Origin: Tubiluchus corallicola | Lineage: Eukaryota > Animalia > Priapulida | Assembly (NCBI GenBank): GCA_030141605.1 | Contig: JAQGDQ010000080.1 | Location: 186,001-250,000 of the forward strand | Direction of reading: 5' to 3' | DNA length: 64,000 bases | In this document: positions 3,201 to 57,988 of the stretch, one piece after another | Numbering within the stretch: position 1 is the stretch's first letter | Layout: every line of letters begins with the position of its first letter | Notes under the pieces: generated by a model | What the model was told of the DNA's origin: nothing | The model's database searches: none | Seen by the model: only the letters and a program-made list of their open reading frames with translations | Position numbers and translations under genes: made by a program

Positions 3201-3413
3201 CAAATATACTTATTTCTGGTTTTTGCTTTTTTTGTAAATGAATTTGCCATTTCTTGTTTTTCTAAATGCTGATAAAGCTTTTTTAGAAATCAATTTAATT
3301 TAAATATAATTTTGTAGATGTGGTTCACCATTTAACATCAAAGTTTAATTTTGTGGATTTGGCGGGATCTGAGCGTGCTCACAGAACAGGAAATACGGGA
3401 GAGCGACTAGCAG
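226..3413 (+). CDS. KIF27: KIF27-like motor domain exons upstream of the giant intron (switch I and switch II)
   Basis: Exon 226-372: [48 protein letters not shown]. Exon 3090-3164: loop insert. Exon 3318-3413: [27 protein letters not shown], ending at a phase-1 GT donor at 3414. Confidence 0.92.
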
Positions 3414-6400
3414 GTATGAGGATTTTTATTAGCATTAATATTTGTGTTTGGTTAAATGCTGTTACTGCCCATTAATTTTTTTGGCAAGTTGAACTGGACA
3501 TCAGAGACAGTATGCTTGCTGTGCACCTAAGATTATTTTAGTGCATTTTTAAAAAGAACCTTTAGAAAATAGGACATAACATGAACTGATTTTAAAATCA
3601 AAGGTTAATTGTTATCTGTCATATAAGTTCAACAATGATTGTTTTAGTCCTTCATTTTTTTCATGTTTCTTGGCAAAGATTCTCAGTCTTGTAATATAAT
3701 CTGTGAGAACTTAACACTTGACATGGATGGCATTTGCAATATTCAACACATTTTTGTGATGACCTTGATAAAGTTTATTGATCATATGCTTAGCTTAAAG
3801 TTGCTTTGCTTAAATTAATGAAATTCATATTTAACATTGCTTTTCTTTTTAATTTAAAGAGTTGTTTCTTTACATAAACAAGTTAATAAGGTAAGCTAAG
3901 ATTGACTAACCTTGTTCAAAGATGTTTAAGTTCTGCTTAAGCCATGTACAACTTTTATTTGTCCATTTGTATATAGTGAGCTGAATATGCACCAGTCGAG
4001 AGTGTTTGACACCAACTGTTTGTATTTGTACCTGTACTAAATCTGATAAAGAAAGTTTATGACCTTTTCTGAGCTGCACACGCACAAATTCTTATCTGTC
4101 TGTATTGCAGTTTAAACAACTTCAAGATGCCATTGTTCTCGTAGGATAGATCTAGCACACTCAAATATTATACAGTTGTTATATAACTGTCAAAGTATGA
4201 AATACACAAAAACAGTACAAATGGTGAGATCAGAGTTATCTTGTGTTAGATTTTTGACTAGATTAAAATACGCTGGTGAATAACATGAAAGGCTTGTTCA
4301 CCATTATAGTTGTCAATATGTTACTGAAGTATCCAAAACATTTGCAATTTACGAGAAAATTATTATTTTCTAATTTAAATGAGACCAGGCACAAGAGATT
4401 TTGATTGTCATTTGCATAGATTAACTTTCAAGGGAGAGATCAATGAATTACGTTGAGAAACTGATATTGTATTAGGTAACAACATTCCTACTTATTTAAA
4501 AGCTCCAAGTTAGCAGGAATGAATATTCTTAGTAATTTAAGTAATTTGTGTTAGCTGCCTTAAAGACCCATGATCAGCTTGCATCATAACTCGGAAGAAC
4601 AATTATCATTAAGCTTATTCATAAAGTAATGTAACTCATTTCTACTGAGCTATAGTTTTTTAGCTGCATGAATAAAATTCAGTGACTTTGCCCTTTAGTA
4701 ATAGAATTTAATATACACACAGGAGTGTAACAGAATTGCACACAATGTGTTATTGAGCAATTACATTGAAATACGTTTAATTAAGTTAAATATAACTTAT
4801 CATAACATCAACTTTCTGTTAAAAAATGCATACTGTTAGCACACATATAAGTGGTACTTATAAATAATCTACTCAAATAACTCCACCCTAATTTTACACA
4901 AGCTTGGCAAATATACTTGGTGTTCCACAACATCATGCGATGTAGCAATAAAAAAAGGGTATGTTAGGTAGTTTATTGCATATATAATGTTATATAAGCA
5001 TCTTATAAAAAACAAAATGGTGCTATTGATATAGTGCATTTTAATATAAATTTCTCCTGTTTATTAAAACTACTAATGATCATTACAGACATTACAATTA
5101 AGTTTATGTAAAAGATTTATATAATTGCACAAAATGATGTGCACACTTACCAATTCATTAAAGATGCTAAAAATGAAGGAACTAAATTGTATTTTGTTTC
5201 TTATTACCTGAAATGGTTACTGGTATACAAGCGATGATGTATTTTTAAAATCTGAATAAAATTGAAAATATAATAACATTGCTTTTTCTTTTGCAAGGTA
5301 CCATGCTTACAGAAAAATTGTCATTGTATTTCAACAATTAGGCAACACACATGTACTTAACATATTTAATTAAACTTCGTTGTTCGACATGAAAGATTCA
5401 TTTGACAATAAATAAATTTCCTAGCAGGCATAATGATTATATTTTTCATGTACTAAAAATATCCATAATACATCACAGACTTGACAAGCTTGATCATTTC
5501 TTAATTTAAATCACAGATATTATACTAAAAAATTGTAACATAGATTTCGTTTTCTCGTATAAATAATATGTGCACTATAAACATTGCGCAAATTATCATT
5601 AAGAGTTCCTGTATTGATGCAAGGAAGACTAGAAAATATGATTGCATATTAAGCAGGGATTACGTCAATACAAACCTTGCTACAGATAAAAATGCAAATC
5701 CTAATATCCACTTTTTATCTAGCAGTAATTGTGGTGAAGAATTTGACTGGTCTAGTGATTTCTCACTTTTACTTGCTTCTTTCTTTCCATTAAACATACG
5801 GTTTTGTATTTCTAGCAATTTTAATCTCTTCTTTGTTTGCACTTCTTGCTGCGTGCAGCCAATCGTGTGTAATTTATCCTCAGGCCAAAATGGGGCTTGG
5901 TTGAACTCATCACAGTCCACTTTGTCATCACCTACATTATGAAGTAACTTGTTAACATAATGCTTCCATGCTTCCGGGAGTTTGATAATTGATTCTTTTG
6001 CTAATTGGATAGCTGAATTAATACTGTGCTGAGTGAGACTCAATGTTTTACATTAGTAGGCTTTGCATAAGTATTTGGATTGGAATGTATGTTGCTAGTT
6101 TATTGGGCTGTTAGTTTGCAGTTGAATGAAAAGGAATGGTCATAATACAGATAGTACCTGTGTCATATGATTTAACTGGGTATCTTGCGTAAAAAATTTA
6201 GTGGCTGGCAATGATCCATAAGAGATTTATTTCAGTGTTTCTAATAACAGAAAGTTTTTTCTAGTAAAGAATTTGTTTACAAAGTGTTGGAAATATAATA
6301 TAAATAAATACTTACCATTTGTATCAGCTTCCTGAAAAGCTTGTTGTAGAAGTTTAACCAACTTCTTGTCTAGATCATCTCGTACTTTACCTACGGCAGC

Positions 6401-9400
6401 CATCAACTCTGCTTCGTTTACCATGCCATCCTCATTTTCATCATAGGAGCTGTGAATTAGCAAGTCTGTCCTGTTGTTTAATCTTGCTGCTATCACATAG
6501 ATGTATTGTGGTGTTTGTGATTTTGAATGTTTGCAGTCAGACACAGCTTGCTGTCTGGTTGGCAATCCTGCATTAGTAAAGTTTACATGAATATATTGTT
6601 TTCAAAGCTTTTGTTTGTTTTTCATTGCTGTAAATAATTTGTCCAACATCATTTAAAGTCAGTTACAATCCAACACCTTTGGATTAGATTATTTTATCTG
6701 ACACATAAAAATTAAATCCTATGATTAAATTAAAAACTGGTTAGGTCGTTCGGATGACTTTTTTAAACTATTATTGTACTATTATTAGTCATAATTCCTC
6801 TAATTTATCACTTACCATGTTTTTTGTTCAGAGCTAGTTCAATGATGCTGTAAGGCTTTATATTATAGGATTTTAGTTCACACCCATCAGCTAGTTCTGT
6901 TTTCTTATAAGAAAGAACTTGTTGTCTGGGTGGGTATGACTGCTGGCGCCAAAGCTGTCGCTTTATATCATCTGCAGTGTCAGTCAGGGTTACAACTGCT
7001 GTTAGCAAGGTTCCTTCTGGTGTTTTTATGTGAATTTGCATTTTATCACCTGTAAAATTAATTCATGTTGAAAATCATTTAAATCATAAAAGGCGACAAA
7101 ATTAAATTCTTTTGTAACAGCACAAACTATCAATTAGGTATATGTGCAATACGGAATGTTAATATTTTGAAATAAATTATTGTTTACATCATTTTTAACA
7201 CTAATTAATTAATAAAATAATTATTTTAAATTGTTGGCACATGTCATACTTCCTACCTAGTCTAGATGAAAATTACAAAAGAAGAATGATCAACTTTCCT
7301 TGTGTGTTTCAAATTTGCAAATATTTATTCTCTGCTTTTGTGTTTGCGATTTCATTGTATTTTTTACGTGAAAATAGAAATTACTGCAAACTTAGAGCGA
7401 CTGATCATAAATTTATTGAAATTGATCATAATATTCCAGCAGATTTAAACAATTTTATGGTTATGTTCATGGAGCCAGTTTGGTATTTATGTGCGAAAGA
7501 AATTTTCCTGTTTAAAGTAACGTGAATTTAATTTTTTGGCGTAGTCAAGGTTTCATGCTAATAAGCGCATTACGTGTGCAAGACATCATATACATTGCTT
7601 TTTTAGTGCTTGTTGTACATAACAATATTTCTTTTGCTTATTGTTATCTTTTCAGTTACTTCAATAATTTAATTTTATATAGAAAGTAAAGTAATCAAAA
7701 AGTTTAATGATAAGTATGCATTAAAGAAGCTTGTTTAGAACTCTTACCTTGCACAACATGTTCTGTATATCCCCATCCACATGTAAGCACTTGAGGTATT
7801 AGAAAAAATAGAATCACTACACTTATAAACATGTTTTTCATATTTGTCATCCCAATATCAGCATTCACCATCATATCAATTGCAGTATTTCACGTATAGG
7901 TTTTTCAATCTTGGGAGGTCTTCGTCTGTCTGATGCAAAGTCAAACTCTATTATGGCATTATGGCATGGTGTCGCCATCCCTGCCTGATATTACTTTTTT
8001 AAGTTCCGTGATTCATGTCATGCATTCTAAGAATGTGGGTATGTCTCGCACAACTTGGCATAAACCAGTCATGCTAAAAACTCTGTCTTGTACGTAAGTT
8101 GTTTAGAAGCATAAAGTTAATTGACGATGGTTATAGGACTGACGGTTTTACACACAGTATCACTCTATATATAGAGTTAAAATTTGCGTGTGGAAGTGAT
8201 TCACTTCACTTCCCGTCAGTGAGATTACATTTGTCGGAAAAGCATTCAAGAGCGTACATGTTTAGTGGCTAAAAAGGGTAATGCCACAATACTGTGTGGG
8301 TGTAAATAGGAAACTGTCAAACTTTCAACAAAAATAAAAATTCCCATGGCCAGCTAGGCAAACAAACAAATGGAAAACAAACAAATAAATAAACGAGGAA
8401 ATTGCCATATTGTGCCTTTACATAAGAAAAACGATCAGAATTGCACCCACCATGAAATTTAGAGTATCATATTCTCAGTCTTTGTCCTTTTTTGATGGCC
8501 AGTTTTGAGTCAATTTTATTTTGACATGTTACTCTTAAGAGTAAATGTTTTCTAATGTTTCACTGTGTGTGGCACGTAAAAATAAAAAGCTGGGCCAATG
8601 AATTCTGAAAGATGACGTTGTTTCCTGGCTGTTTTTGGCAGAGATTGTTTTAGAAAATGTAATACGTGTGTTTGCTAGCTAATTTATATTCCTTGGAATA
8701 GCAATACACCAGAAATTAAACGAACATTTTGTTTGTGTGTTACTGGCTTTATATTAGGAACTAATAAAAATAGTCTGACTGTCAAGATTATAAGTAAAAT
8801 CATTTACCATTGATTTTTGTCCTTTTTTGTTTGTACATTTAGCATAATTTTTTACTACTCATTAAAATATATTGTGTCTCAAAAGTCACTATACACTTTG
8901 ATTTCTAATTTCGTTTTTGAACTGTCCTCCAATCTCAGCTATCTCTGACATGAATCAAAAATGGTCTTTCGTGATACTTTTTATTTTATTTTTTACTGGA
9001 ACCTCATTGCCATGGTAACAACAGTAACATGAGAAATAGGTGCAGAATCAGCAAGCTGCGAGGTTGTTCGATCACCAATTGAAGTTCAGAGGAAATTCAG
9101 TGCACTGATTAGACTATACTATTATCTCACGATTAGCAATGCAGTTTTTCAACAAAGTGCAGCCCTTCTTCATTACTAATGGTATGGGAGAGACCTTCCC
9201 AATGCAAGACGGTCCTTGCCACTGGATTGGTCTCTGAAGCTCTTGAAGTCCCTGAAGAAAGTAGCAAAAAATAGCAAAGCCTATTAGTGTAGTATTTCTT
9301 TTTAGCTTTTAGTACCCTACCCAGTCTCTCTGAAATTTGAAACTATGTTCAAAACTGTCTGACTAGATCTCATCAATGTTTGCTCTTTTTCTATGTTTGC

Positions 9401-12400
9401 TCTTTTCATAATGTATCACCATGAAAAAAACAGCTAAATTATAGAAACTTTCTTGGTGATAACTTTGTTTTATGCTAAACTAGCTCTTCAGAAGCAGATT
9501 ACAGAAGTGTCAGTGGTGCATCACGCTTATTTTAAATAAGTCCTTATCACAGTATCTGCTGTGTTTTTGTTTTTGTGGGTTTATGGGTTTATAGGTAGCC
9601 ACCTGTTGTTCATTAAAAGTGATGCACAAATTCCCCATTCACAAGTTTCTAAACAATTTTTTCTTCAATGACTTTGCTTTTCATACTTATTTAAATCATC
9701 CAAACTATGCACTTCCATAACGTCATAGTTATTTGTTAGCACAAATATGTTTCCATCGTTAACCCAAGCCTTTTGAACTAATGGCTTCTTTTGTTTTACT
9801 TTCTTCAATAATCTCTTTCTCCTGTGCGTGAGGTGACGTTTTATTTTGATGTTGGAATCGTTTGCTACACGTTTCCGAGCGTGATGCAATGCATTGCGAT
9901 CGGACAGGCAGCTAAAGCGAACTAATATTGCACGACGTCTGTTTCTGTGTCTGCTTCTGCTTCCTGTTCTTTTGGCATATTCAATACTGTCTTTGGTGAG
10001 ATTCACACCTAATTCTGCAGCTACTGAGATCACGCCTAATTCTGCTTCACCAAGTTTTTTCATTTCTTTGTTAGCACTAATATTCTTGAACATGGTAGTT
10101 GCAAACGGTTCAGTTATCCCTTCAATAACCAGATCGTAGCGAAATATATTCTGCTGTAGTTGGTCTACTTCCAACATTAGATTGTTTTTCTGTTTTTTTA
10201 GATCCTCTATCAGGATATGTAGATCATCTTTGAGGTCAGTGTACATTTGCTCTTGCTTGTTTCCCACACAGGCTACAGCATTTATAAAGCTGTTGTCCCA
10301 TTGATCATTTATTGCATGTTCTTTTAAACAAAACTGTACATCACCATGGAGGCCTGGTGGCAAACCCTTCATTATTCCTTCATCATCACCTCGATAGTGA
10401 TGAGATGTGGTACTGGATGCTTCCTGAACTGCTTTTGAGGTAGATTTTGTTGTTGTTGTAGAGGATGCACTACTTTTCTGTCTTGCTGGTTCTGTTCAGA
10501 AAATTAAAAAATTTAAAAACAAAAAGGTGGAAACATGAAATCTATTGTTTTGGACCATAAAAGAGAACATCTCATTTCAATATAATGTACTCTACTGTAT
10601 AATGAATAACATATAGCATATATTAATTTCGGTGGTATATATATATATAAGGTCTGGACCCACAGATTTGCCAATGGGGATTTATTTTTAAAATCGGTCC
10701 CACCGGGAGGAACGGGGGAGAGCGAAAAAACTCCAAAAATGGCCATTTTTTGCCAGTTTTTTGCAAAACTTATACCTCTTATTTCTAGAGAACAAGAATG
10801 TGCCAAGGGCGGTGCTGGTAATGGCTGAATAGCCCATTCAATGGTGGGTGTAATAGTCATATTTAGATTTCACAGGAGGGTCACCAATGCCCGCTACGGG
10901 CATTTTCCCGAACCTAACTCCCAATTTTTTCGAAATTTTGATCAAACGGCATGCGGAACAAACATTCTAGCGGCCCCTGATGGACCCTCGAATGGAGATA
11001 TATAGCTCCTTAGAAAGAGGAGGAACAGGGCTACACGATGGTGTGGGCTGTATTGTAGGATGTCTCCACCCTGAGGAGCTGTGACGATTGATTGGAGGTT
11101 CCATTTCGGGCAATTTTCGCTTGGAAAACTGCTGATTCAAAGCCACTGTTCTGACGTCATCTATTATACTCTGCCTATAAACTTATAACTTTAATTCAGT
11201 AAAAGCTGCTGCTGGCTTTGTGTTAGAAATGAGGACTAGGTAGGACGTTCATGTATTTTTGATTATAAGTGTATTTATATGCAAAATTGTTTACGGGGCT
11301 TTTGCTTGTTAATAATTAATTCTGTTGATGAAATTGGAAAACAATGCAAGTAGCATAAATGCAGGCTTTCAGAATAGTTAGGCTGTTGAGTGACTGGATG
11401 GGTGAACAGGTTTGATACTTGTTTTGGCAAGTATCACTGACCATAATGATTTAGTCTGTTTACGTCACACAGGGAGGTTGGTTTTACATTATACAATTCT
11501 GCATCTACCCATGGCTAATAGCTAAGATACCTTTGTCCAGTAGCTTAATTTAGCCTTGATAATGAGTCAGGTTTAGATATCGGCTATCCAGTTTGACTAG
11601 GCCCTGCATTTGAAAGCTGGGTTACAGCTTACAGTAAAATTTCCAGGTTTGATTTTTCAATTTCATACAGCTGAAATTACATTTTAATGTAGTTTTATTT
11701 ATAACATCATCAGTTTATCTCAGCTTGAAGTAACCACACAGACAAAGGTAAAGCAATATTAACTAGACTTTTATTTATGTTATGGAGATGGACCAGTCGG
11801 TTATTTATATACTGATTCTGACAATGAAATTCTTGTATTGTATTTTTCGCTTCATGAAGTGTTTACTTGTCAGTAAGAAACTTTCTTTGTTATAAGCAGA
11901 TGTTTACTTATGTAGTTTGCTTTTTTGCAACTGGAGTAGCATAGTGTCAATTTCATTTTACAAACCTCTGCATTTTGGGTTTTCCCTTAAAATTGCTTCT
12001 CGCATCTTCGGTTTCCAAAATATCGCCCAGTAGAATTCCTGGCAGCTTAAAGCACTATCTCCTATAGAACAAGATCAAAATTAATACATAGTTTTGCATA
12101 AAATTAATCTTGTCCTGTATCTGTTGTAAAAGTATGTAAAATTAGGAAAGTATTTCAGCTAGCACAGGGAGCAAGTGTAATCGGACACATGTTGGAGTCA
12201 TTGTCACAATATTAATCAGAAGAATTTTTGTAAGCTAGATCAAGAATGTCAAGGATAGATGAGATATAATAGATTGTAACAAATCAAAATAATTTGTGTT
12301 AAGCGATTGAATTAAGAAATAATTTGGCAATAAATACAGATATTTGTAGAACTCTTTTGATTTAATAATGTTAGAATTATACTAACGGTTATGGTCAGCA

Positions 12401-15400
12401 GTTGTGAAGGCTTTGTTTACATTTTTTCTAGTTTCTTCATCGGTTATTTCCAGTTTTTCTAGGATTTCACTGACGTGAACAATGCCATCACCATTCAGAT
12501 CATAGGAACTGAGCACAAGAAGGTCCTTCCTGTTATTAAACTGACGTAGTATTGCATTCATAAATTCCCATTTAGCTTCCGTTATTGTCAAATCTGGAAA
12601 AAGCATGTAAATCACTGCAATTACATTTTAATATAAGGAAATTAATTAAGGTTAAATGTGAAATTCACAGTAAAGTGAATTTTTCTATTAAACATAATCA
12701 TATAGGTTTAGATCACTATTGCACGCTGCCCATCAAGTGTCTGATCTAACAGGCACTTGACAGTAATGTCTAATGCAGTGAAAATTTTACAAAACACACC
12801 TTTTAGTTCAGGAGTCCACTTGATTTAATAATTTTTTAGGTCAAAATATTTGATATTGTTGTTGTTTTGCCACTAGTAAAATTGTGGTGCTGCCCAAAAA
12901 AAAACAAATGTAGCTTTTTCCTCAAAATCGGCCTTTATAGAGGATGAAGTACTAAGTTATTCGTGTATATCAAGTAATGTCAAACCTGATATTTCTACCA
13001 AATGATTTCATATTATTGAAATACACATATCAGGATTTTCTGCTTTGGCATTGATTGTAGTGATTGCCAAAAAGTGGTCATTTCTTCAAGGTTTAGAGAG
13101 CCAAGGAAATGGCTTTGTGCAATTAACATTCCTATATGAATAGGTCACTTTGTCTGTCAGTCACTGTAAAAGCAGTTTGGAAGGACAAATGTTGAGAAGT
13201 TTGTTGTACAAAGGCCTGAATGCAGTCGACGTCAAAGTACTCTAGAATTTCTAAATGAACTGCACAGTTATTATGTGATAAATTTTCATGAAATTGACTT
13301 GTAAGCCCAAGTGGGCTGGAAACAGCTTTAATAACATTTTACAGTATTAATTAACACATGAATTATTACATTGTTATTATCATATGTTTATGTCAATAAA
13401 GATATTCAATCAATCAATCAATCTAAGAAACTTTTTGTTTTTAAAGAAGAGTTGTTGGATTTCTGCTTGGGAAAATGAAAAAACATGCCACTTTCATTAT
13501 ATATTCAGATTTTTGCCTTTGCAGCTGACAACCTTTTAATGTAAAGAGATTAACGTTTAAGATGTTGATAAACCGCATTTATTTTTTTTATCAAAGTAAA
13601 GCTGATCATGAACTTAAAACTCATCAGGCATTGAGTATTTGTTCATTTTGTTTGTCATTGCACTCAACAATTACGTTGGATTTTTGGAGTTTCTCCTGAA
13701 TGAGCTCTTAAGATCATAATGATTTCAATATAATTCTGAATTGAACTTAAATGTTATGTTCATATTTTGTCTTTTTGATCATAACATTTTTTTACTGACT
13801 CTGGCTGTCCTTGTGTTTAAAGCAAGGACAAAAAACTCATAATATGCATTACAATAATTATAACATATGTCATCCTGTTTTTGTTGCATTACAACTACAT
13901 AGTAATTAATAAAACATTCTTACCTAAATTTAGTGGCCTAGTAGGCAAGCCAAAATCAGGCAAAATAACACTAGGCTTGCCGCCTGGACCAGGGGGACCT
14001 ATTATAGGAGGTAGTGGTCCTGGTACACTGGGAACAACACCCCATCCGCATCCCAGTACCTCGTGGCTTACCGAACTACACAGTAGTATTACCAAGCACG
14101 TTATTTTCATTGTGACGTATCATTAATCCAAATTACCCAACAGGAGAAAAATCCCATGTTGCCTGCAAGCGTTTACAGGATGCCTACTCGTTTCCTTTCA
14201 GCACTGCTTGTATCCTGGGCTCGTCACAGCTATGACAACTTGTAACATTAGACGTAGTTAGATGGGTAATTTTCTGCAGCAAGTGTTGAGACTTTCTGAG
14301 AAAATCCCGCCTTGCTACATTGGGTGCTATAATTAGTTAGCTTTACCATTTAGTTCATTAAGTGTAATTGTTAATGCAAATGAGAATGTGTAGATATTAC
14401 TGGCATTCGAGTGCTTTATATGATATAATATCTGATGATTTTGTATTTTAAATATAACCAGGTCTATGGGATTTTAGTCTGCAGCGCACTCTGTATGCGC
14501 CCTGCTAGGAACTTTTGTTTCTCATAGGAGGTCGCATCTATGATGCTTCACTAATAAAAGTTTGAAATTATTTAGGGTGGTGGTTTTTACAAGCAACTGT
14601 TGCCACTTCCCACGTTAACATGCAACTTTGTTTGAAGTTTTTATGAATGGCACAGCTATGATGCAAGCAACTGCAAATTAACGTTTGGAAGCTTTAGCTG
14701 CACATGGGTTACATCTTTAAGACTTCGCTAACTCTTGGCAGGGTTACAGTATTATGAATTTAGGCGTTTGGAAGTCTAGCTGTCAAATTTTTCAGGTTCA
14801 AGATTGTGGGCCAGGATTATGACTTTCTAGAAACTCTGTAGTTTGTACTTATTCTGTACTTATTGAATGTGATTTGTTTTTTAATTTGTAAGAAAGTTAA
14901 CTAGTCACGTTTGTTGCACGAGAAATTTAGACATTTTCTAGTGTTAGCCCATTTAATGGCAATTATGTTGAATTTTCTTCTTGCTTTCACTCGCGCACTT
15001 TATGTAAGCATTTCTATATTTAACCATTACATATAGTACAGTAGAATATTTGCTACGCTGAGGATATCACGTGACTCTTTTGCCACGAGTGACGCCAAAG
15101 TTTGACACTTGCCAAAAATTTTCGCGACTGCGTATTCTGCCCAGGTCGCAAATCATTCGTGAAAAGTTTTAAATAAGTTCGCGCGTTCTCGGCACTTTTT
15201 TGCCAGTTTTGAGCTTTTTTCTCGAGAGAATACCACACGAAATTCGACATGTTTGCGACATATTTGCAGCTGTTTGGGTGACTTCTACGATACTTATACG
15301 ACAAGCCGAATGTTGCACGACATTTGCCCGAGTACGTTACGATCGTTTCACGGCCATTTCACAGAATTTTGGCGAAAAGAAGTGCGAGACAACCGAGGTT

Positions 15401-18400
15401 GTCCAAAATGTTCAAAAATAGTCGCAAAGTGGTGGCAGCGTCTCAAAATGTTTTCCAAGATTTCCTGGAGTTCAGAAAACACACGACAGTTATTTATTTT
15501 TATTTTAATGCAAAAGCCAAGTCTCGCGGGAAGCTGAGCTTATTTTAATGTATGGGGAAAATTTAGAAAATTTCAGCATTAAAATTGTGATAAGCATCTC
15601 GTGTAATTAGTAAAATCAATTTAAAGTCGTGATTACTTTACTCTTGGGCGCGCTAATTTTAGCGAAAAATGACGTCATCCGGTTTCCGTGCAAAATAAAA
15701 TCTTATCCCGCCAAGTAGACTAAAGCTATGTAACCACTTTAAATTTGATCGTAATTGCTCGAATGGCTAATTTCTAGATAAACACAGTTAAACACAAAAT
15801 TAGAATAACGGAACTCCTAAGCAAACTGTAGAAATTGTGCAAGTACCTTGACACAGCTTGTCTTCACGGCATTCAGGCTGCCTAGCATACACCAACTTAT
15901 GTCGTTTCTTTTAAATATGCCGGCATCAACGTTCGTTTGGCAGGAGATAAGAAATGTATTAAAAGCTAATGGTAAATAGTTTTATGATTAGCCTGTACAA
16001 GCACTAAATGTGAATTTTTCACTACATACATAAATTAAGCAGTCTAGCAGTCTCAACGATCATTGTTTTTAAAGCGTTTACGTTCATTTATAAATGTCTG
16101 CACACAATCACATATTTTACATTTATTTACAAAACCTAAATTTTCGTCTCCATGAAGTAACAAACGTATGATATTCCTTTATGCCAAATTTCTGATGTCG
16201 TCACTATCTTATAAAGCATTAAGCTTAACATAATGTGGGCAATTGAGAACAAATGTTCATATGTACATGTATCAGGAGATGCACTCCATGTACAGAAGGG
16301 CGATACTAAAGAACCATCATTACTTTTTACAATTTTTAAATGATAGGTCATAATTTTTTGTCTAAATCCTGTGCGTATGCGCGTATGGTGAATTGAACTT
16401 GGCTGTTTGCTGTAAAAAATAGTTTGGATGTTTATTAAAATCTAAGTGCTTTTTAGTTCAAGTTTAAATATTGATAAAGATCTTATTTTTACGTTTAGTT
16501 ATGGGAAGTTTCATTATTTCACGGCTTCTTTGTACTTCGGACATTCTTTACTCCATGTCAAATGCTCACCTCAGCTGTTAATGCGCTGTTCAGTTTCGGA
16601 TTCACAGGGCTTTTGCGAACACTTCTCTTCAAACAGGACTTGATCGACGCCGCTTAGCTACACGAATGTATTTGTAACAGTTGTAAAGATAATAGGCCAC
16701 TCCACTCAAGCTAAGGATCGCTTAACTTTGGCAGTAAGCGCATACCTTGAGTTCATGACCATTCATTTATTTTTCCGGAATTCATATAGAAGCTTTATGC
16801 AGGTATGCACATGCATGTTTCATCATTTTGCACAGATTGGAAGGGAGGATTGGGAGGTTGGCACATTGTCATTGTCATTGCAAGATTTTACTATTTAGAA
16901 ATATAGGTAATAATAATAATAATATAATAATAATAATAATAACAATAACAATAATAGTAATTGTAATAGTAATAGTAATAGTAATAGTAATAGTAATAGT
17001 AATAGTAATAGTAATAGTAATAGTAATAGTAATAATATTTGAAACCACCAATTGAAAAAAACAAGTTCTATGGTATTTTATTTTGATCGTCACATAATAT
17101 GTATTAAAAGTCTGCTAGTTAAGCATCTTCTGGATTTAAATATTGATTTTACCCGACTCATAAGACATATTGCTATAGTTGTGATCGATTTTCAAATGAT
17201 TAGCCTGGAGGTGAATTAGCCCGCGAATCCTCGGGCTAATTACGTCTACTATGTAATGTAGGCCTAAAACGTTTTGAGAGTTAATACGTGGGCACATATG
17301 GTGGTGATCATATTTATCGTCAGTTAATTGTTACGTTCACGTCATACATAATTACGTATTGCTTTACCCTCAATCCGCCCCATACTTCAAACGCCCCAGG
17401 GAGAAATTATTTTGTAGCTGACACGCCAAAAAAGGTGATGCATGTATACAAGGGTTAACACATTTGGTTACAATGTAAACGGCAAAACTTTCAAATGTTA
17501 ACCATTCGCGACTATATCACTTATTAGAAGCATTTGCATGTGTAATAGTAAGTGTACTGTAATGAAAGTTACTAGCAATAAACCGTTTGTCTTAAGTTTC
17601 TGTCATTATAACTTCACCATAATTAGCATTCATTCAAAGGCTTTTGCTCTCTACACATTTCGATTGTACAGCAGATATAACAACATTTATTTTCAGTGAT
17701 TTGGTTTGTTTGTTTTTTATCAAATATTACACTTGACAAGATGTTCAAAGTTGCAGTTCATAAGTTCTTCATCAAATAGGGTTCCTTCTGGGCACTGTCT
17801 AAGGTAAAACTTTCCCCAGTTGCAATGGAGCCATCTTCTGCAATTTGTTGGATCTGGAAAATTGCCAAATGGTTCCGGACAGTAAAACTGTGCATCACCT
17901 TCATAAGGTCCTACAGGAACAGTTTGACCGACATTAGGTGGCTTTGATCCTACAAAGTAAAGGGTTGCTATTAGTTAATTATTTTGATGGAGCAAATTTT
18001 ATATTGTTTTGTCATCAGTAAGACAAAAATGTTTGCTCATGGTTTATAATTTTTGTATAGCCCTATGCAAAAATTGAAACAATTTTACAATTTGAATATA
18101 TTTGGGGTCTTTGAAGGTAAGCAGCTTTTGACTATACAGGCTTAAAGCCATAGGAGTTCCTTTGTGAAATGTTTAACGTACCTACAGACAATGTGCAAGT
18201 TACTTTTTCCCTGTCACTTCCAGGCCAGAATGGAGCGTTTCGGAATTCTTGACATGAAATCGCAAAGTCTCCTGAAATGATTACATATTTTTATTAGCAC
18301 GTATCCAGATAGGAACAATGAACTATTCCGTTTGTATCGAAGGGAAAGTTACTGATTAATATTCGAGTGCTGTCTTCACCGCATCATATACAAGTCCTGA

Positions 18401-19938
18401 TACCTTATGTATAAGTGCCGAAGAGCGATTATCTTAGGCACAAGGGGTGTATTTATTATTTCAAACCAGTTTTGCTCTGGTATTACTTTGGTATTACTGC
18501 TTACTGATTAAGACTCACCTATATCTGATATCTTGCGTATTACAGTGTGAAAACTCTTTAATAACATTAGTTTTCATTTGCTTTTTGTTTTAATTTGACT
18601 GATCTGCCGGTTATCTTACTTCACTTCCGTTCAAATTTGTTTTAACGCTTCATAGTTTTAACAATTTGAACAACTGAGTAGTTTTTGGCTTTATTTACGC
18701 AGAACGCATTCAAGCGTGGGTCAGGCCAAAAAGCACTACTTTTTTACATTTACCCTAAGTCTTACCATTTACGTCTGCATCGGTGAATGCTAAGATGGCC
18801 ATCTGTTTAAGGTAATCATCATAGACTATTTTGAGAGCATTCAGGATTTCCGTTAGATCTATTTTTCCATCTTGATTCTGGTCATAAGTGTTGAAGTTTA
18901 ATAAGCGCATCTGATCCCTGTGGCCAGTCGCTAACTTATAGAAGTAGAAATATCTGTCGTCAATGTTCTCCATTTCTTTACTTTGCAGTTGATCAGTTTC
19001 ATAAGCTGTAATAGACTTTTAATGAAAATAATGTTCATGTTATTTTTACAATCACGAAGCTAGCTATAAGCATGTACGTGTACTTTATGGCACAGCTAAG
19101 ATTATTATCAAGATGCTTCTGTCGCTGTAACATTCTTAATGTTATCGGCTCAATTTATGTGTAAAATCGAATAATAAAAATATTACATTGAATTGATGGC
19201 GTCTGGATAACTATTGTTATGCAATGTACGGTGATGTAAGAGATTTACTGAAAATTTGTGAAATTCCAAAAAACTTAAAATTACAAACAATTCAAGTTAA
19301 TTGAAAGAAACAATACTGACCCGGTCTTGAAGCTCCTGGTGCCGAAGACCATCCACATCCACAGCTAAGTTTTAATATTGTCTCGAATAAAATTACGCAC
19401 AAACTCACTTGTTTGTTCATTGTCAACTGTCGAAAGATAAAAAACACAAAGCCAGATGTATGCTAACACATTCACGTAGTTCACATTAGTCGTCAGTAAT
19501 GATGCTATAGCACTTCCCAATTCTCGATATTATAATAATTATATGAATGTGCTTTTGTTTAATTAAGCCAAGCTATGAGCATTTTTTGTAACAGTTTTTA
19601 ACATAACTCGTTCTGTACTTGCAAGTAAAATGTTGCAGATCTTTGTAGAACCTGTGTAGACTCGATCTGTGTAAAAGCTGTGAGTCTCGACGTCATATTC
19701 TTTGCTGCATTTATCCTTCACTGTCTAGGCGGCTTAACTTGAGGAGGTGTTTATCTTGTCAAATTTACTTTACGTCTTATGTTTAATTTACAGCGTGTAA
19801 AACGCATCTTCAACAAAGGCTTTTTCTTCCCTATTCAATAGACTATTTTTAGAGTCTTGGTTGAGTCAAACCAAGTCTGGTGAAATCAGGTTAGAGGATG
19901 ATTTTATAGAGGAGAGGAAAAGTGATTTGCAGTGTGAC

Positions 19939-19985
<47 letters not shown>

Positions 19986-22900
19986 TCACTTGTATATATA
20001 TTGCTCTTCTATATATATATATATATATATATATAGAAGAGCAAGGCTTCGTTCCACGTACTCATATTAATCGTTATCTGAGACAGGATCTGCTTCTTTT
20101 CACGATTAGTAATTAATAATTGATGAAAACTGCCAAACCTGCTAGAAATTTAGGCAACGAATTCTCTCTCTGTGTGTGCAACTTGCTGGCCGACTATCTT
20201 TTTATTTTACTTTATTAATATAGTGAAGAAGACGTTACTGCCTGTTTGCGGTCTTAGTTAAACTTTTAGCATATGCATGTCCCAGCCTCTACTGAGGGCC
20301 CTCTAGTATCTGTGGCTTTAGCCGTCTAGCATCTATAGTTTTACCGAGTTACAATTTACTGATTTTTTTTTGTGTTTCTGGAGCGTGATCCCATTTAAAA
20401 GAAGGTGAGAAAAAAGTTGGCGACATACTGACTCGCAAACTTACGAAGTTTCAAAATATTCGAGCGAATACAACAGCAATTGAATAACTTCAGTGTAAAT
20501 CGGCACGCATTGGGCGCTCATAATGGGATAGGTAGCCAAGCAGACTTACAGTGTGGTGAGCTGTAGGTTTCAGTTGATTCACTTGTGAACTAATCAATCA
20601 TAAATGTGCTAGTGTGTATAATTAACTCTTTTACTGTAATCTAATACGAAGCACTTTTCTTTACGCAATTCTTTTGATAGTAAATTTTCTAAAGATGTTA
20701 GTTGACAAATAATAATATTAAAAAAACAGAAAAGTGTGGGAACTTGGGACTAGGGAGTATTTTTCGCAAGTTTATAAATTTTCTAAATGCAAAAAAGACG
20801 CGTTAATGTTTGGTTTGAAGTTTCGGTTTGAAGGGACACTTGTATTATGTCGAACCGAGCACACAGTCACTGTTCATCTGTTTCAGTGTTTTCCCCCAGA
20901 TAAAAGTTTAATTAAGTGAATGGTAAGATTTACTACTAGTAATAAATTTTTGATTTTTATATAATCGTTCTAACCAAGTGTTTTGTTTTATTTTTGTCTT
21001 AAGTAAATACTGTCATTTATAGTGGTCTAGGCGGGTAAGTCAAATAGTGCATGACTATAAACATGTTACAGGCAAAGTATGAAACCGGGCATTCTATTGA
21101 ATACTTAGGCATTTTATGGAGTGCTTAACCAAATCAGGCAAAGCGTCTAAATAATTTCTTTTACACATTTTCCTAGGCTTTTCTACACTTTTCACATTAT
21201 ACATAATACAAGAGTTTGTTTAGGCACAGTGTGTAATTCTTTGATTTTGAATATACTTTCATTAGGTATTTCATGGAATACTGAATGAATTTTAGTTCAT
21301 GTACAAATAAAACAAATGGTCAATTGTTTTGATATAAGTTTTCTAAGCATAGCCAATTATATATTAGGGAATGTGTGAAATAAGTCTTCTTTCTATGTGC
21401 TTGGAAATTTGTATGGTGTAACGATCTGACGATTAGGGGGTAGGTTGTTTGATCGATGGTAGTCGCTGGATAACAAATGAACTGGCCTGTGCGAAAACTC
21501 TTAGAAGGACTTAGTAATAAAGCTGCAATAAGTGCTTCGTGTAACTATGTAACTAGTAAAATTACTTTAAAATCGCGATCATTTTGTGCTTGGATGCATT
21601 CTTGTTTCAATGACGTTATTCGTCTTGAAGAAAAGTTGCGCACTATCAATCTTCATCAAATGTATAATTAGTTTTTACAAAAAAATTAGATAGCTTAAGA
21701 TATTTTATAAAATGTCTAAATTACACATTGCCTATAACATATATACTGTTCACTTGATAGATTACATAGACGATCTACGCGAAAGATTACGTAGATGGTA
21801 ACAAATAACTTTGTCTAGCAAAATGTGATGTTTGTAATCTTATTATTAGAACATTCGAGGTACTGTAGAACCTCTTTTGGCCAGAATGTTGTGTTTAAAA
21901 ATTCTGAACAAGTAATCCCGAATGAACCTGAAAAAAGTAAAAAGACAAATTTAAGTAGTAACCGTAAATCCAAGCTTAAGCGGCGTTTATCAGACATCCG
22001 GAATGCGTTGCGCTATTGTGTATCCACTTGAGAATAAACAGCCTAACTGCAGAATAACGCAACAACGCAGGCCTGATCATTTAACCGGTGCATTGAAAAC
22101 AATATACAGTTGTTTTTATCTGTAACGTAATAATGCATACGCAGTAACGCGTAACGCATTCCGGATGTCTGGTAAATGACGCTTTAAGAAAAATTTACAC
22201 GTTTTTAATTCATTGCGGAAAGTTACTAGTAGCTAGTTGAAATTTATGGCTTTTATAATGGTTATCCGTGCATCTTGTTTGAACTTGAGTTTTATTAGAT
22301 TTTGAAAGCACTGTTTCAACAGCTTTACAAGTCTGCGAGAGTAGTATGCTACTAGTGATTTAATGCATAAGAACACTGCATTACATAACGAACAAAACAA
22401 TTTCATTTTTAATAGGCTTGGCATACATCATTGCAAATACTAATAAACAAAGATTATGGAATATGGATGGAATCGCGGATATGATTTATTTTTGTTCTCT
22501 AATATTTAAAGCAAAATATCTATCTTACCATTTGTGTCGACTTGTCGAAAGACTGAATAAGCAAGGCCTTCAATATTTGTATTTCCGTTTGTTTTTAAAG
22601 CTTCTCTAACTTCGTGAAAATGAATGCAATTGTCATTATCCGAGTCGAAGTACGAAAAGTCGAAATACGGCGAGATTAGAATCCCACGCAAAATTTCAAA
22701 AATTTCACAAGCTACAAGAGGTTTTATGTCATCTGACCATACCACGCTGTTAATGAATTCCCCACAGCTAATCCGTCCATCATCTATATTAAACAGATTG
22801 CCGAACAGTTAGTTATTGATTAAATTATAGCGAAGAATAACGTAACATGACTTTCTATGTTAGTACATATTCAATTATGTTTTTGTGATGACTGTACTTT

Positions 22901-25900
22901 TTTCCCTTCCTTTGCTTACCAGCTGCTGCTGCGTTTGTTTTTTTCATGATTTTCTCATTTCTTTCTCAGGCATTGTACGCTTTGTAGTACTTTTTTTATT
23001 ATATACGCTTTCATTTAGTTTTGTGTAGTCAGTTGTGTAGTTATACTTATGTAGCAGCATGAATAAACTGTAGAGATGATTTTCTAAAAGTTTTGTATAA
23101 CATGGATTACAGTAGTTATATAGCAGACAAGCAGACGAACTGGCATCTATGCTGACATGCAGCAATGCAGGCTGATAGATGACAGCATATCACCTGTGAG
23201 CAGTAAAAGTTAAGTCGGCTAGCAGAAATCTTACAAAACTAGTACTAGACGGCAGAAGCTTGCAACAACTGCACAAATAGCAACTCTCCCAAGTTTATAT
23301 GTTGTTAATTGTATTATTTAGATGTATACTGGAATTTTTAATGAAAGGTAAAGGTTCTGAGTAGGTGCAGTAATCTCTAAATATAAGGTTTTTTCGTCAG
23401 TCATATTTCTGCATGCCAGTTCAGATTGCACGTTCTGTGTACATAATTTAATTCGCTAGCTATTAATTTTTTACCCGTACTGTACATTCTACACCGAGTA
23501 TGGTTAAGACACTATTGTGTATACCAACTACTTGTCATGCAGAATCATGGTGGTGTTTCATAAAAATCAATTTGTTTCAAGATTTGTTCAAGCTTTACTA
23601 AAAAATTCACAGGGTCAATGTTTATTCTAATGTCATGCAAAATATGCCCTAATGGCCTATATGCAGTAGAACCAGCATGCAAATAATAAATTATGTTAAA
23701 CTTTTTATTTAATATGTAAAAATCTTATTTATTGAAAGTGCATAAAATTTTTACAACTGTTACATTTTTTTTAATTTACCAAATTATTTTGAAATGTTAC
23801 TCATAAATGTAGTCCCATTTAAGCCCGCAGTTTTACTCGGTAGGCCATGTAGTAAGAATATACAGTACTTCAATTTTCAGAGTAAAAGATAAGCCTTCCA
23901 AAGCGGCAAATACTCTCTATTAAAAAAATTGAAACAAATAATTATACTGACATATTTGCATCAGCGTGAGGAGTATGTCCTTGACGGAAGAATTATTGTT
24001 CTTTGATAACAATCGGTAAATATTAAGTAATTTACTTTCTGGTTGTACTAGCTTATGAGCACATCGGCTAATTAAAAATAACAAATGGATAGTTAGCAGT
24101 CAACTAAATTAAAATCTTCTGACAGTGTGAGAGCTAGATAGCTAGTCTCACGAGCTTATCTACTAACTGCTAGCTAAAAATCAAGTACATATAGCTAATT
24201 AACTAAAACTGTATACTCATATGAACTATTAGAGGGTTAATCCGTAGTTGGTTCTATAAATTTTGTTATTTATTATTACCATATTTAGACTTGACATTGG
24301 ATCGAAAATTGTATAATGTCCTGTTTGTTACAGGTCAAAATTTCCTTAATTGTTTAGTTTTTGTTACCGTCCGTGAAGATAGCCAATTTTTGTTGGAAAC
24401 AAGTTGGACAGTAAAATTTTGAATATCTTTACAATTTGCTTCTGTGATTACTTGAAAGTGATACACAAAAATAGTTTTAGAGCTGCACTAGTAGAGGCTA
24501 TTGCAAGTTAATTTAAACCCTCGTTGTAGTCATCATATTTCTGAAGTTTACATATCCATTGTTCTGTAAAATTTTTGATTTCTTCTAATTATTAGTAACT
24601 AAGTAACTACGAATTCTTCTAATTATTTACAGAAATTATAAGTTATCAACATGTTTCGAGGTGAGATTCATTGTTACAAGGTACAAGTAAAAATTTTAAA
24701 ATGTTGAGAAATACGCAGGGCATGCATACTTGCCTTCACGAACGTAACCCAACTCGTCGCTAGAACTTTGAACTGCTTAGTGCGTGGGTAGTGTAGTGCG
24801 CTTATTATACCTCGGGTGCCAGTACGACATCCATATACTTATTATGATTACTTGCAGAGAATAAATCTCTGGCATTTATTAGATACGCAATGTTGTGAAA
24901 TGGCAGTTACAAATTATGCAGTGATGTACATTTGTTCAACTTACCGTCAATGTCAGTATCTTGCCGTATGGCTACAGCCAGCGTCAAGTTTAAATGTAAA
25001 TTTAACACAGACTGCAGCTCATTGACGCTGATGAAACCATCACGCGGTGAAACGTCATATGTGCTAAACCGTAGCAACTCAGTTCTGTTGTTTTCCCTAT
25101 AAAAGTTGTATAATTCCGTGTAGTCAATATCTGGATTTGTGCTGGATGTCCGACGAATCCCAGGCGATATTGCACCTCCGCAAGCTTCTGCTCGTTTTTG
25201 AAAAAATATTATAGACAAAATAATAATTATTGTTAAGAATCTGTTTGTCGCGTTTGAAGAAGTTAATGAAAAAGCCATCTTTCAACTGTGTTGTGTGAAA
25301 CACTCTCGTAAATTACTTTACTTGAGCTTGACGTAGACCTTCCGTATATTTCCTCGTTAACTGGGCTGTTTACTTCCGTCTTTCCTAGCAATTCCAGTCA
25401 CTTTGGTGCAACTTTTAAAGGGAAGTATCATAATATTGACTTCCTTTCCATACTCAAACACGTGTTGTTGTGTTCACTTGCTGTTTTCGTATTGAGTCTG
25501 TTAGAGTAGTATATACGTACTTGGATATTCTTACGATTTTAGTGGTGACAGTAACTGTACAACCCGTGTATATGGGTTGAATATTCTGAGGTCCTGAATA
25601 TTGTGTCCGGAAAGCAAACTGTCTGTCAGTCCGATTTTGAAACTAGAATTAGCCAGTTGAGTGATAAACTTGAAGCTCTAGACAATAAAATGAGCTGCAG
25701 CTCAAAACCATTGTGGAGTGATATAGTATCGATGCCTAGAGCCGAGAATAGTGCCAAGCTGTCAACAGAATACAAGTCTGACGACAAAATGAAATTAACC
25801 AAAACCATCTATGATCCGTCTCGTACTGTAATAATCAGCAATGTAAACGATAAAGAAATTGTTAAATCAAACTTCTCCATCGAAAAACAATTATCCCACC

Positions 25901-56200: not shown

Positions 56201-57988
56201 TATTCAAGTTTCTAGGCTCCATAGTTACCTTCTCATTTGAGGAATTTATTCAAGTTCGTAGGCGCTACAGTTGCTGTTAAATTATTCGTACCGAAGAAAA
56301 GTAGGGTTTCCTTATTTGCCGCAAGTGCCCTCTCGTTTGAGGAATGTATTCAAGTTTGAAGACGCTATAATTCTAAACTCATTACTGAGTGTAATAGCCT
56401 GATTCCTATAATTCTGGGATGTGAACCATGGGCATTACTCCCATCTAACAGAAAGTGACACTCACTCTTGTCATTTAGTGGTTTACTTTCAATGCTTTGT
56501 GTGATTTATTAAGCTACTAGTAACAATAATAGCTTGTTATTTAAACTTGTTTTAGGCGATAGCGCTGCAAAAGTCATCGGATTCACAGGAGAGCGAAAAT
56601 GCTGGGACACAAATGCATTAGCGTCGAGTAGATTCAGCACCCAAACCTACATTCCCAGTAACGGCAGTCCATTGGGATTCACTGTCTCTTGGAACAGAGG
56701 AAAATCTGTTACGAGCTGGACTGGACATTATCGCGTACGCATACTGTAGTCCAGCCTTGTTTTTTGTTTAAACATATTTATTTTACAACCTTTAGACAAA
56801 AAGTCCATGCGGGGTTGTATTGTTTTTACAATGTTGCCTTGTTTTTACAATGAACAATGTCACAAAAGTGAGACGTTGCTTGGAATTCATATTTGTTAAT
56901 GCAGAACTGATCATTAATAAGTACTGCTGAACTGTTAGTTAAAAGTTGACAACGTCCAACTTATAAGTTGGTGATTATATATTAATGCTGATTAATGACA
57001 ATGTTTCTAAAATCATTAGGTTAAAGTATCAATTTATAATTAAGCTTTTAGCTTGGTAACTGATGGAAATATTGACTACCTCAAGTAACGCGAGAGCTCT
57101 CAAAATAAACGAGGGACGCGCAACTAGTTGACCAAAATCTCTACACAATTGGTAATTAATTAGCACGCACTATAGGTTTATAATTTGAAATATCACTCGC
57201 GCAATTTTGTTATAAATTAAACAATTGCACTGTGTATAGAGTTAACATTAAAAATTATTCTTAATAGCAATTATTGTAAATTGGCTTTTAGGTGAAAAAA
57301 CTAGCTTGTGACAACAGAACTGAAAATGAGTGCAGGCAAGAAAGAACAGCATCTCTGCATTTGCACTGGGTACTGACAAGCCAGGCAGATGAATACAGTC
57401 AACAGTGGCATTTAACCAGGTACATCCCAGTCATACAAGAACAAGCTAAAGAATGTTATTATAATTATGATAAAATATATCATAATGGCGTAAAGTAACT
57501 ATTTTGAAGTAAACTATGTTTCTTACTATACCGGAACACCACTGACTGGTTTCAGCTCTTTCTATTTTAAGTTCTGTTACTCTGTCTTCTTTCTTTGCCT
57601 TATTCAGTGGATTTTTTCATACACGAAAACTGTCCATAGCAATACCTAGCTTTTCTGCAATGCAAGGGGAAAAAGCTCAGCACTGAAAACAAAGTAGTCA
57701 GGCAGAAAGGTCACTAGATAACCGTGTTCACCATCTGAAATGGTGAAGATTTTTTCTCTTTGTTACTTTCTCAATCATGAAGCTGCCTAAAGCTGTTCAA
57801 TATTGTTTTTTCACAAATAGATCACATTTGATAATCAAAGCGTTACTTAACCACTATTTGCTTTTTATTACAGAACTGGACACGATAATTTCCACAGGCC
57901 CCAAAGGAACTCACAGCCATTGAAAGCAATGTGCTTAGATCATCCAAGAGCAACAGCCTGCAGCAAGCACGAGGAAGATCATTTTTAA
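53297..57988 (+). CDS. Secreted avidin/streptavidin-family protein, 4 exons
   Basis: Exons: 53297-53591 (signal peptide; DLTGVWYNQHGSEL...GRLEGEFRTRVE); 56556-56734 (GSPLGFTVSWNRGKSVTSWTGHY); 57292-57419 (LHLHWVLTS...QWHLT); 57874-57988 (TGHDNFHR...stop). These match streptavidin ITGTWYNQLGS / LGWTVAW / SATTWSGQY / TQWLLTS / WKSTLVGHDTF. Confidence 0.9.
56158..56370. repeat. ~49-bp degenerate tandem repeat in avidin intron 1
   Basis: The unit CAAGTTTCTAGGCTCCATArTT...CTCATTTGAGkAATTTATT recurs 3-4 times. Confidence 0.7.

Follow-up and report, generated by a model that had tools for sequence, protein, structure and literature searches.

The window analysed here is a 64,000-nucleotide (nt) stretch of the genome of the priapulid Tubiluchus corallicola (contig JAQGDQ010000080.1, positions 186,001–250,000). 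On its minus strand, it contains four genes of secreted-type EF-hand proteins, referred to as A, B, C and D, which share one EF-hand core and are nested in an intron of a plus-strand kinesin gene. The gene models, built from the window sequence, are open from ATG to stop and lie in the map order D, C, B, A. Gene D encodes 233 amino acids (aa) in three exons, while C (219 aa), B (438 aa) and A (286 aa) have four exons apiece. All of the 11 introns are of the GT–AG type and in phase 1, with lengths from 232 to 2,161 nt.

Four antisense genes with a common EF-hand core

The kinesin exon upstream of the cluster ends at 3413, and the next one begins at 30163. A 19-letter stretch of motor-domain text reads through this gap in phase 1, so all four genes lie within a single 26,749-nt intron, as the sequence-only reading of this DNA had proposed. 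The host gene has a Pfam match to Kinesin (5e-11) on an earlier exon (207–410). Pfam names it as Kinesin only; from motif likeness, we take it to be of the KIF27/KIF7 type (kinesin-4).

The splicing of A and C was confirmed by two Logan proteins of a close relative, P0030 and P0020 (contigs of 1,690 nt and 1,814 nt, respectively). P0030 is colinear with A (246/284 residues identical) and P0020 with C (189/215), i.e., the orthologs are 87–88% identical, and the two alignments span all six junctions of these genes, P0020 being two residues shorter at the first junction of C. As gene A spans 2.2 kb in the window, which exceeds the length of the P0030 contig, P0030 is most simply a spliced transcript; P0020 is likely to be one as well, if less forcedly so. 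In addition, one contig of sequencing run X2 (a run of small size, presumed to be RNA, whose sequence differs from the window by about 8–10%) omits exactly the first intron of C, with a short side of 21 letters, which is under the 31-letter bridging rule. Other X2 contigs fall inside exons 1 and 4 of B. The run leaves A, D and the core exons of B uncovered, which is no sign that they are silent. The predicted junctions thus held for A and C (6/6), while those of B (0/3) and D (0/2) were not seen in RNA or protein, and no transcript or protein support was found for D. Chance ORF fragments are ruled out by the spliced relatives, and pseudogenes by the open frames and the conserved orthologs.

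In total, the four genes harbor five EF-hand-pair cores, two of which belong to D. A Cys residue at position 10 of the second loop (EF2) and an intron in codon 4 of the same loop are found in 5/5 cores, in agreement with what had been read from the sequence; a phase-1 intron occupies the corresponding site of the EF2 loop in the calmodulin genes of vertebrates. All of the ten EF loops (nine of 12 residues and one of 13) retain the ligands at positions 1, 3 and 5 and the closing Glu, and the EF-hand_1 profile scores above the Pfam cut-off for both P0020 and P0030. Calcium binding by these loops is predicted. The W..C tail is likewise shared, with the tail Cys 19 residues after the loop Cys in four of the cores and 24 residues after it in B. 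The proposed (N)NRxxLLxx[S/N]xYD motif is only partly common to the family: NNRxxLLxxSxYD fits A, B and the first core of D, fits C loosely, and does not fit the second core of D.

The cores of the paralogs are 22–38% identical. When each gene was left out in turn, the profile built from the others still found the omitted core at 71 bits (A), 61 bits (B), 77 bits (C) and 41–43 bits (D), whereas the best generic EF-hands in the same profiles scored 33, 41, 38 and 35 bits, respectively (about 1,600 domain hits in 148 proteins); the margin is small for D. In the phylogenetic tree, seven family rows are separated from 30 of the best-scoring generic EF pairs by a branch with support of 96/89, present in 98% of the bootstrap trees, as expected if the four cores form one clade. 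The branches are long, and the outgroups, which include no known secreted invertebrate EF-hand family, are all generic, so the tree demonstrates the kinship of the four genes rather than their nearest relatives. The second core of D groups with C (87/89), apart from the first core of D. Run over the whole window, the core profile recovers only the nine known core exons, at 33–86 bits, the next best score being 6.4. The family had also been described as rapidly diversifying. This is not borne out, since the low identity of the paralog cores indicates old duplications and the orthologs remain 87–88% identical.

The structural model of P0020 contains a confident helix followed by an EF-hand pair (residues ~60–135; predicted local distance difference test, pLDDT, 75–93 per block). 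This core has the paired helix-loop-helix fold with a short beta bridge, as in the EF-hand pair superfamily. The chitin-binding (CBM14) part of the model did not fold. Structural matches are ordinary EF-hand pairs with Z up to 7.7, which is within the background range for a common fold.

All four proteins have a hydrophobic N-terminus with small residues at −3/−1 followed by Cys-Gly, as judged by our own hydropathy rule, not by SignalP; the common secreted-type N-terminus noted earlier was therefore recovered in 4/4 genes. Between the orthologs of A and C, the first 12 mature residues are identical (24/24), whereas the signal peptides differ at 12 of 44 positions. The mature chains of A, C and D contain odd numbers of Cys residues (5, 9 and 7, respectively), and that of B, in its long form, an even number (6). 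In C, pairing of the loop Cys with the tail Cys, together with the six used by CBM14, would leave the N-terminal Cys without a partner; by count, the N-terminal Cys is also predicted to be unpaired in A and D. The C-terminal ends (ITFC, KCNI, KQSH and FVLT) lack an endoplasmic reticulum (ER)-retention signal in 4/4 proteins. C and D are acidic (isoelectric points, pI, 4.7 and 4.5), without long acidic tracts.

With a profile made from the five EF1 exons, a search of 1.84 billion representatives gave 4,145 matches at E-values up to 0.001. Among the best 150 of these (at least 59 bits), two are family members, P0020 and P0030, each matched at full length in a single stretch, and the rest are generic multi-EF proteins; since only the best 150 were seen, weaker relatives would be hidden, and absence elsewhere does not follow. 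A word-index search with the P0020 core confirmed one of 13 candidates, P0020 itself, and a metagenome scan with P0020 confirmed none of 102 pattern matches. Thus, no family member beyond the close relative was found by these searches, which are weak for distant relatives.

Modules added to the core

Exon 2 of A encodes a ubiquitin-like domain (Pfam ubiquitin, 8.6e-11; 41.9 bits vs. a cut-off of 25.4). Its residues 3–74 align without gaps to residues 1–72 of ubiquitin, about one third of them being identical, and 67 of 77 residues are identical in P0030. The C-terminal di-Gly is absent, the domain ending in NKKHG, and the L8/I44/V70 residues of ubiquitin are replaced by P/S/A; the domain is therefore predicted to be neither cleaved nor conjugated. 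At the C-terminus of A, hydrophobic windows at residues 270–280 of 286 look like a glycosylphosphatidylinositol (GPI) signal; they are retained in P0030, in which the tail is identical at 54 of 61 positions. A GPI signal comprises small omega residues and a spacer before its hydrophobic C-terminal end. The GPI anchor of A, as well as the ORF1 fusion of B discussed below, is a prediction. Exon 4 of C encodes a complete six-Cys chitin-binding domain (CBM_14, profile positions 1–53 of 53; 50.7 bits vs. a cut-off of 22.1; 2e-13), with 48 of 55 residues identical in P0020. On these alignments, the ubiquitin-like exon of A and the chitin-binding exon of C are real shuffled modules and good cases of exon capture.

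The second EF pair of D, which had been listed as a further extra module, is not a clean shuffled exon. The middle exon of D fuses the two cores, which are only 24% identical, and this fits a fusion of two old neighboring paralogs better than shuffling. A recent internal repeat is ruled out, as the two cores, at this identity, are not sisters in the tree. The phase-1 introns, regarded earlier as the precondition for exon shuffling, are likewise to be read with care: the phase is indeed 1 in 11/11, and shuffling stands for the modules of A and C, but the introns represent only about five independent positions, since five of them are one inherited EF2-loop intron, which marks no module boundary, and three follow the signal exon. 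Phase 1 is common after the signal exon in secreted animal proteins.

The long fourth exon predicted for B encodes a region that we take to resemble ORF1p of type II long interspersed nuclear elements (LINEs), presuming likewise a link between FP and ORF1p. Pfam gives Baculo_FP_2nd at 18 bits, under the cut-off of 24, and no match to Transposase_22, while look-alikes in arthropods and molluscs occur in the Atlas at 0.91–0.92. The model, made from one sequence, comprises a long helix and a helix/three-strand/helix end, with a middle part at pLDDT < 50. Fold searches returned coiled-coil matches only, none with an E-value under 0.001, and the sequence search confirmed 0 of 463 candidates at E-values up to 0.001, with nothing useful among solved sequences. 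In the available part of the source, type II ORF1p is described as a coiled coil, one RNA recognition motif (RRM) and a C-terminal domain (CTD), in that order (PMC4120745). Compared with its X2 contig, exon 4 shows 18 synonymous and 15 other differences, where 9.1 synonymous ones are expected, and remains free of stops. The count uses 33 of the 36 letter differences of the contig, excluding a 9-nt in-frame insertion, and gives a ratio of nonsynonymous to synonymous change (dN/dS) of ~0.20; a fraction of 0.0006 of 5,000 shuffles reaches 18 synonymous differences. By this count, exon 4 is under purifying selection.

We favor, with some reserve, the long form of B, in which exon 4 is joined to the core. 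The frame of this exon opens 4 nt before a strong acceptor, in phase with exon 3; the endonuclease and reverse transcriptase (APE/RT) motifs of a LINE ORF2 were not found in the three frames of 7900–9660, i.e., in the 1.7 kb downstream of the exon; and the X2 depth is similar on exons 1 and 4 (46.5 and 50.2), which is a weak argument. Precedents for ORF1p-derived last exons are given in the accessible text of PMC12129022. The competing explanation, somewhat less probable in our judgment and still a strong contender, is that B is a short protein of 165 aa, with the ORF1-like frame belonging to another gene or to a mobile element of low copy number, or serving only as a minor alternative last exon. 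The exon-3 donor is weak (GTTTGT), and a frame that runs past it unspliced meets a stop after two codons; three A(A/T)TAAA words follow within 270 nt, such words being common in DNA of 33% GC; and three further candidate starts, each an ATG with a donor, were noted between exons 3 and 4. Moreover, the X1 contig that covers the ORF1-like part has a depth of 28.5, compared with 6.5–13.6 for the seven other X1 pieces listed, which suggests a second copy, and purifying selection would be expected in an active element lineage too.

This X1 contig (9769–10401) matches exon 4 without a difference at about twice the depth of the next listed piece, and possibly represents an identical second copy in the genome. 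Downstream of exon 4, at 9131–9251 on the minus strand, a good acceptor precedes a phase-1 frame of 39 codons that ends in Cys and has no Pfam hit; it is possibly a further, or the original, last exon of B.

Feature coordinates and neighboring elements

The exons of the four genes and the flanking host exons are listed in Table 1. The start codon of A may lie at 7868–7871 instead, as in P0030.

Table 1. Positions of the four nested genes and of the surrounding kinesin exons in the window.
Feature	Position	Strand	Basis
Host kinesin exon upstream of the cluster, DLAGSE motif	3318..3413	+	Exon reading, motor text
Phase-1 kinesin intron with four genes and one LINE	3414..30162	+	GT 3414, AG 30162; predicted junction
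Following kinesin exon	30163..30284, end approximate	+	Motor text continuity
A exon 1: signal peptide and mature start Cys-Gly-Trp-Gly	7748..7850	-	Gene model, P0030 alignment
A exon 2: ubiquitin-like domain, symmetric phase 1-1	6816..7049	-	Pfam ubiquitin 8.6e-11
A exon 3: N-terminal helix, EF1, first third of EF2 loop	6316..6567	-	Gene model, profile
A exon 4: remaining EF2, W..C tail, hydrophobic GPI-signal-like C-terminus	5660..5931	-	Gene model
B exon 1: signal peptide, Cys-Gly-Trp-Gly, Pro/Gly-rich segment	13924..14110	-	Gene model; 235-nt X2 contig
B exon 2: EF1 and EF2 start	12387..12593	-	Gene model, profile
B exon 3: remaining EF2 and tail	11966..12061	-	If unspliced, stop at 11958-11960 and 165-aa protein
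B predicted exon 4: Ser/Thr-rich linker, coiled coil, LINE-ORF1p/FP-like region	9665..10491	-	Gene model
C exon 1: signal peptide and mature start Cys-Gly-Trp-Ser	19321..19420	-	X2 contig joins 19321 to 19005
C exon 2: EF1 and EF2 start	18766..19005	-	Gene model, Pfam, P0020
C exon 3: remaining EF2 and W..C tail	18182..18271	-	Gene model, P0020
C exon 4: linker and six-Cys CBM14 chitin-binding domain	17720..17949	-	CBM_14 50.7 bits
D exon 1: signal peptide, Cys-Gly, first EF1 (13-residue loop with Pro), EF2 start	24945..25278	-	Gene model
D exon 2: tail of first core fused to EF1 of second core	22529..22783	-	Gene model, Pfam, profile
D exon 3: remaining second EF2, tail, C-terminal Cys	21815..21927	-	Gene model

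The same kinesin intron contains a LINE directly upstream of D (25555–28350, plus strand). It has a 323-codon ORF1 with Cys/His knuckles, followed by an APE frame (Exo_endo_phos_2, 7.4e-15) and then by broken frames, the RT region being seemingly truncated. High-copy repeats, with a summed X1 depth of up to ~10,000, are found at 10600–11300 (intron 3 of B), 15550–15900 (between B and C) and 21250–21700 (just downstream of D); a terminal inverted repeat was looked for in the first of these and none was found. Intron 2 of D carries a short inverted repeat (21978–22184; 51 nt, 82%) that resembles a miniature inverted-repeat transposable element (MITE). Elsewhere in the window, an avidin-family gene (53297–56750, plus strand) with a signal-like start has at least two coding exons (Avidin, 3.2e-07; the second near 56513–56746). 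A Rhodopsin-class G protein-coupled receptor (GPCR) gene with introns lies at 61140–62800 on the minus strand, and its closest named protein is XP_014681093.1 of P. caudatus (68–73% per exon). For one exon of this gene, at the right end of the window, two proteins were matched among 16 candidates, the same P. caudatus protein being the best (74% over 89 aa); this single gene points to a priapulid as the probable host. Presumably, the receptor resembles the invertebrate melatonin-receptor-like GPCRs.

Proposed function and comparison with known systems

Beyond gene structure and domain identity, the mechanism of these proteins is inferred. We propose, at about even odds, that the core is a permanently calcium-loaded, disulfide-closed binding adaptor that works in the chitin cuticle or in a surface coat, to which its add-ons direct it. 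Signal cleavage would leave each chain starting with Cys-Gly. Calcium, at millimolar levels both in the secretory pathway and in body fluid, would keep both EF loops permanently loaded, so that the core would serve as a rigid binding module and not as a switch. A single disulfide would connect the Cys of the EF2 loop with that of the tail. Targeting would be left to the add-ons: C would bind chitin; A would sit on the cell surface through a GPI-type anchor, displaying a non-conjugating ubiquitin fold; D would offer two cores; and B would extend a Pro-rich arm and perhaps oligomerise through an ORF1p-derived coiled coil. The spare N-terminal Cys may cross-link one chain to another or to the matrix, or may take a lipid. 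The family would have grown by tandem duplication within the intron, followed by the gain of modules through phase-1 introns, D having arisen by fusion of two neighbors. In the extracellular matrices of invertebrates, EF-hand and chitin-binding domains are found repeatedly as a result of domain shuffling (PMC13425148).

Several observations weigh against this proposal. The chitin-binding module is present in only one of the four genes, so that for A, B and D a place in the cuticle is suggested by their resemblance within the family, and CBM14 also serves in the gut lining and in immunity. The role in the cuticle or surface coat is thus a prediction from sequence. The argument from a spare Cys is weakened by the even count in the long form of B and by an extra Cys in the tail of P0030, the spare Cys being a count and not a structure. 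Finally, the junctions of B and D are those not seen in RNA or protein.

Among other functions, gut- or coelom-secreted recognition or barrier molecules are the first to be weighed, and this role seems unlikely, if far from negligible. C would bind gut-lining or microbial chitin, A would act on the cell surface, and the EF core would provide calcium-dependent binding. Such a role would suit the CBM14 domain of C and the old, divergent paralogs with swapped modules, which are typical of invertebrate recognition families. On the other hand, the orthologs are well conserved in every module, with no hypervariable part, and lectin, Ig and antimicrobial domains are absent from the Pfam hits. For A–D, a role within the secretory pathway, as calcium-dependent cargo adaptors or chaperones similar to MCFD2 or CREC proteins, is improbable. 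A signal peptide followed by an EF pair is the layout of MCFD2, and MCFD2 (3lcp_D) is found at Z 6.4 among many tied rows of the structural search; against this, a KDEL/HDEL end is absent in 4/4 proteins, and the chitin-binding domain and the GPI-like tail point outside the cell. CREC membership was rejected, as A–D have two to four EF loops and no ER-retention end. CREC proteins have six or seven EF-hands and mostly an ER-retention end.

The biomineralisation toolkit suggested in the sequence-only reading, with acidic EF-hand proteins nucleating mineral on a chitin scaffold, is very improbable. The acidity of C and D would agree with it, although neither has the long acidic tracts. To our knowledge, living priapulids have a moulted, chitinous and unmineralised cuticle and no mineral skeleton; the priapulid host makes mineral nucleation unlikely and a role in a chitin cuticle or surface coat more likely. 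EF-hand and chitin-binding domains are standard in shell matrices, as far as the available text of PMC13425148 goes. For the priapulid cuticle, the accessible part of PMC8588615 mentions only chitin layers and the lorica and does not confirm the lack of mineral, and priapulids are placed among the moulting animals in that of PMC6170570.

The farthest-reaching possibility combines several predictions: a priapulid family of secreted EF-hand proteins would have drawn two intracellular modules, the ubiquitin fold and the ORF1p region of a LINE, into the secretory pathway through phase-1 exon capture, and its members would also carry a Hedgehog-style lipid on the N-terminal Cys-Gly. The family would then include an ORF1p fusion outside the cell and would represent a new class of substrates of Hedgehog acyltransferase. 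We regard this conjunction as a long shot.

All of the single modules are known, and the accessible text of PMC13425148 already describes secreted EF-hand proteins diversified by domain shuffling in invertebrate matrices. A literature search by title and abstract start found no paper describing the A–D family, most subscription papers and supplements (with possible proteome lists) being outside its reach. The combination of modules appears to be undescribed, above all the ubiquitin fold on a predicted surface protein, in itself unusual, and the possible secreted ORF1p fusion. In comparisons of moulting animals, priapulids serve as a key outgroup, and little of their cuticle protein repertoire has been catalogued. 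The cluster offers a compact case of exon shuffling onto one scaffold, in which the ubiquitin-like exon of A matches the domain almost to the codon and is confirmed in a spliced relative. It also illustrates that nested antisense genes with short exons escape ORF-based annotation.

Of the known systems, the small secreted two-EF-hand proteins of the EFCBP type from pearl oyster likewise have a signal peptide and one EF-hand pair and are predicted to be extracellular; EFCBP is named in a title cited by PMC13425148, and the comparison is by description. In the Atlas, EF-hand clusters from molluscs (133 and 145 aa; 0.86) are a lead only. Unlike EFCBP-type proteins, A–D have a Cys-Gly start, a loop-10/tail Cys pair and appended modules, and their host has no shell. 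The layout predicted for A–D, an extracellular helix with a disulfide-stapled EF-hand pair, would also have a parallel in the extracellular calcium (EC) domain of SPARC/BM-40. SPARC EC (1sra) aligns to the P0020 model over 92 residues (Z 5.7; root-mean-square deviation 3.9; 13% identity), the longest alignment among the 50 rows listed, in which it ranks 41–42, with a Z within the background for common folds. The first EF1 loop of D has 13 residues and a Pro, as does EF1 of SPARC; the Cys of SPARC precedes the loop, whereas that of A–D is at loop position 10. In SPARC, a follistatin-like (Kazal) domain precedes the EC domain. SPARC membership was rejected, as the four models have neither the room nor the Cys pattern for a follistatin/Kazal domain and no Pfam hit to one.

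C shares with the CBM14/peritrophin-A proteins a six-Cys domain above the Pfam cut-off and differs from them in having a single CBM14 behind an EF-hand pair, a pairing not found in the searches run. A resembles the secreted ubiquitin-extension proteins of cyst nematodes in carrying a ubiquitin-like domain behind a signal peptide, and differs from ubiquitin in that an EF pair and a GPI-like tail follow the domain. The N-terminal Cys of Hedgehog is acylated (PMC9513256 and PMC8693861), and Hedgehog-acyltransferase substrates have, once the signal is cleaved, a free N-terminal Cys that is N-palmitoylated (PMC9513256). The likeness to them consists in the predicted Cys-Gly start of all four proteins. 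The Hedgehog assay peptide (CGPGR; PMC9513256) has basic residues, which the CGWG, CGWS and CGGA starts of A–D lack, and acylation of the N-terminal Cys in A–D is a lead only, suggested by analogy.

For B, the nearest parallels are Lyosin, NUP42-L1 and USP4-L1 (PMC12129022), in each of which a host gene acquired an ORF1p-like exon that is under purifying selection. In Lyosin, the ORF1p part is combined with EF-hand motifs, and in NUP42-L1 and USP4-L1 the ORF1p-like exon comes last. The words "secreted", "signal peptide" and "invertebrate" have no occurrence in the main text of that paper. These three proteins are vertebrate and intracellular, whereas B would put the predicted ORF1p-like region behind a signal peptide. 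If the junction of B is real, the domestication of ORF1p would extend from intracellular vertebrate proteins to a secreted protein of an invertebrate.

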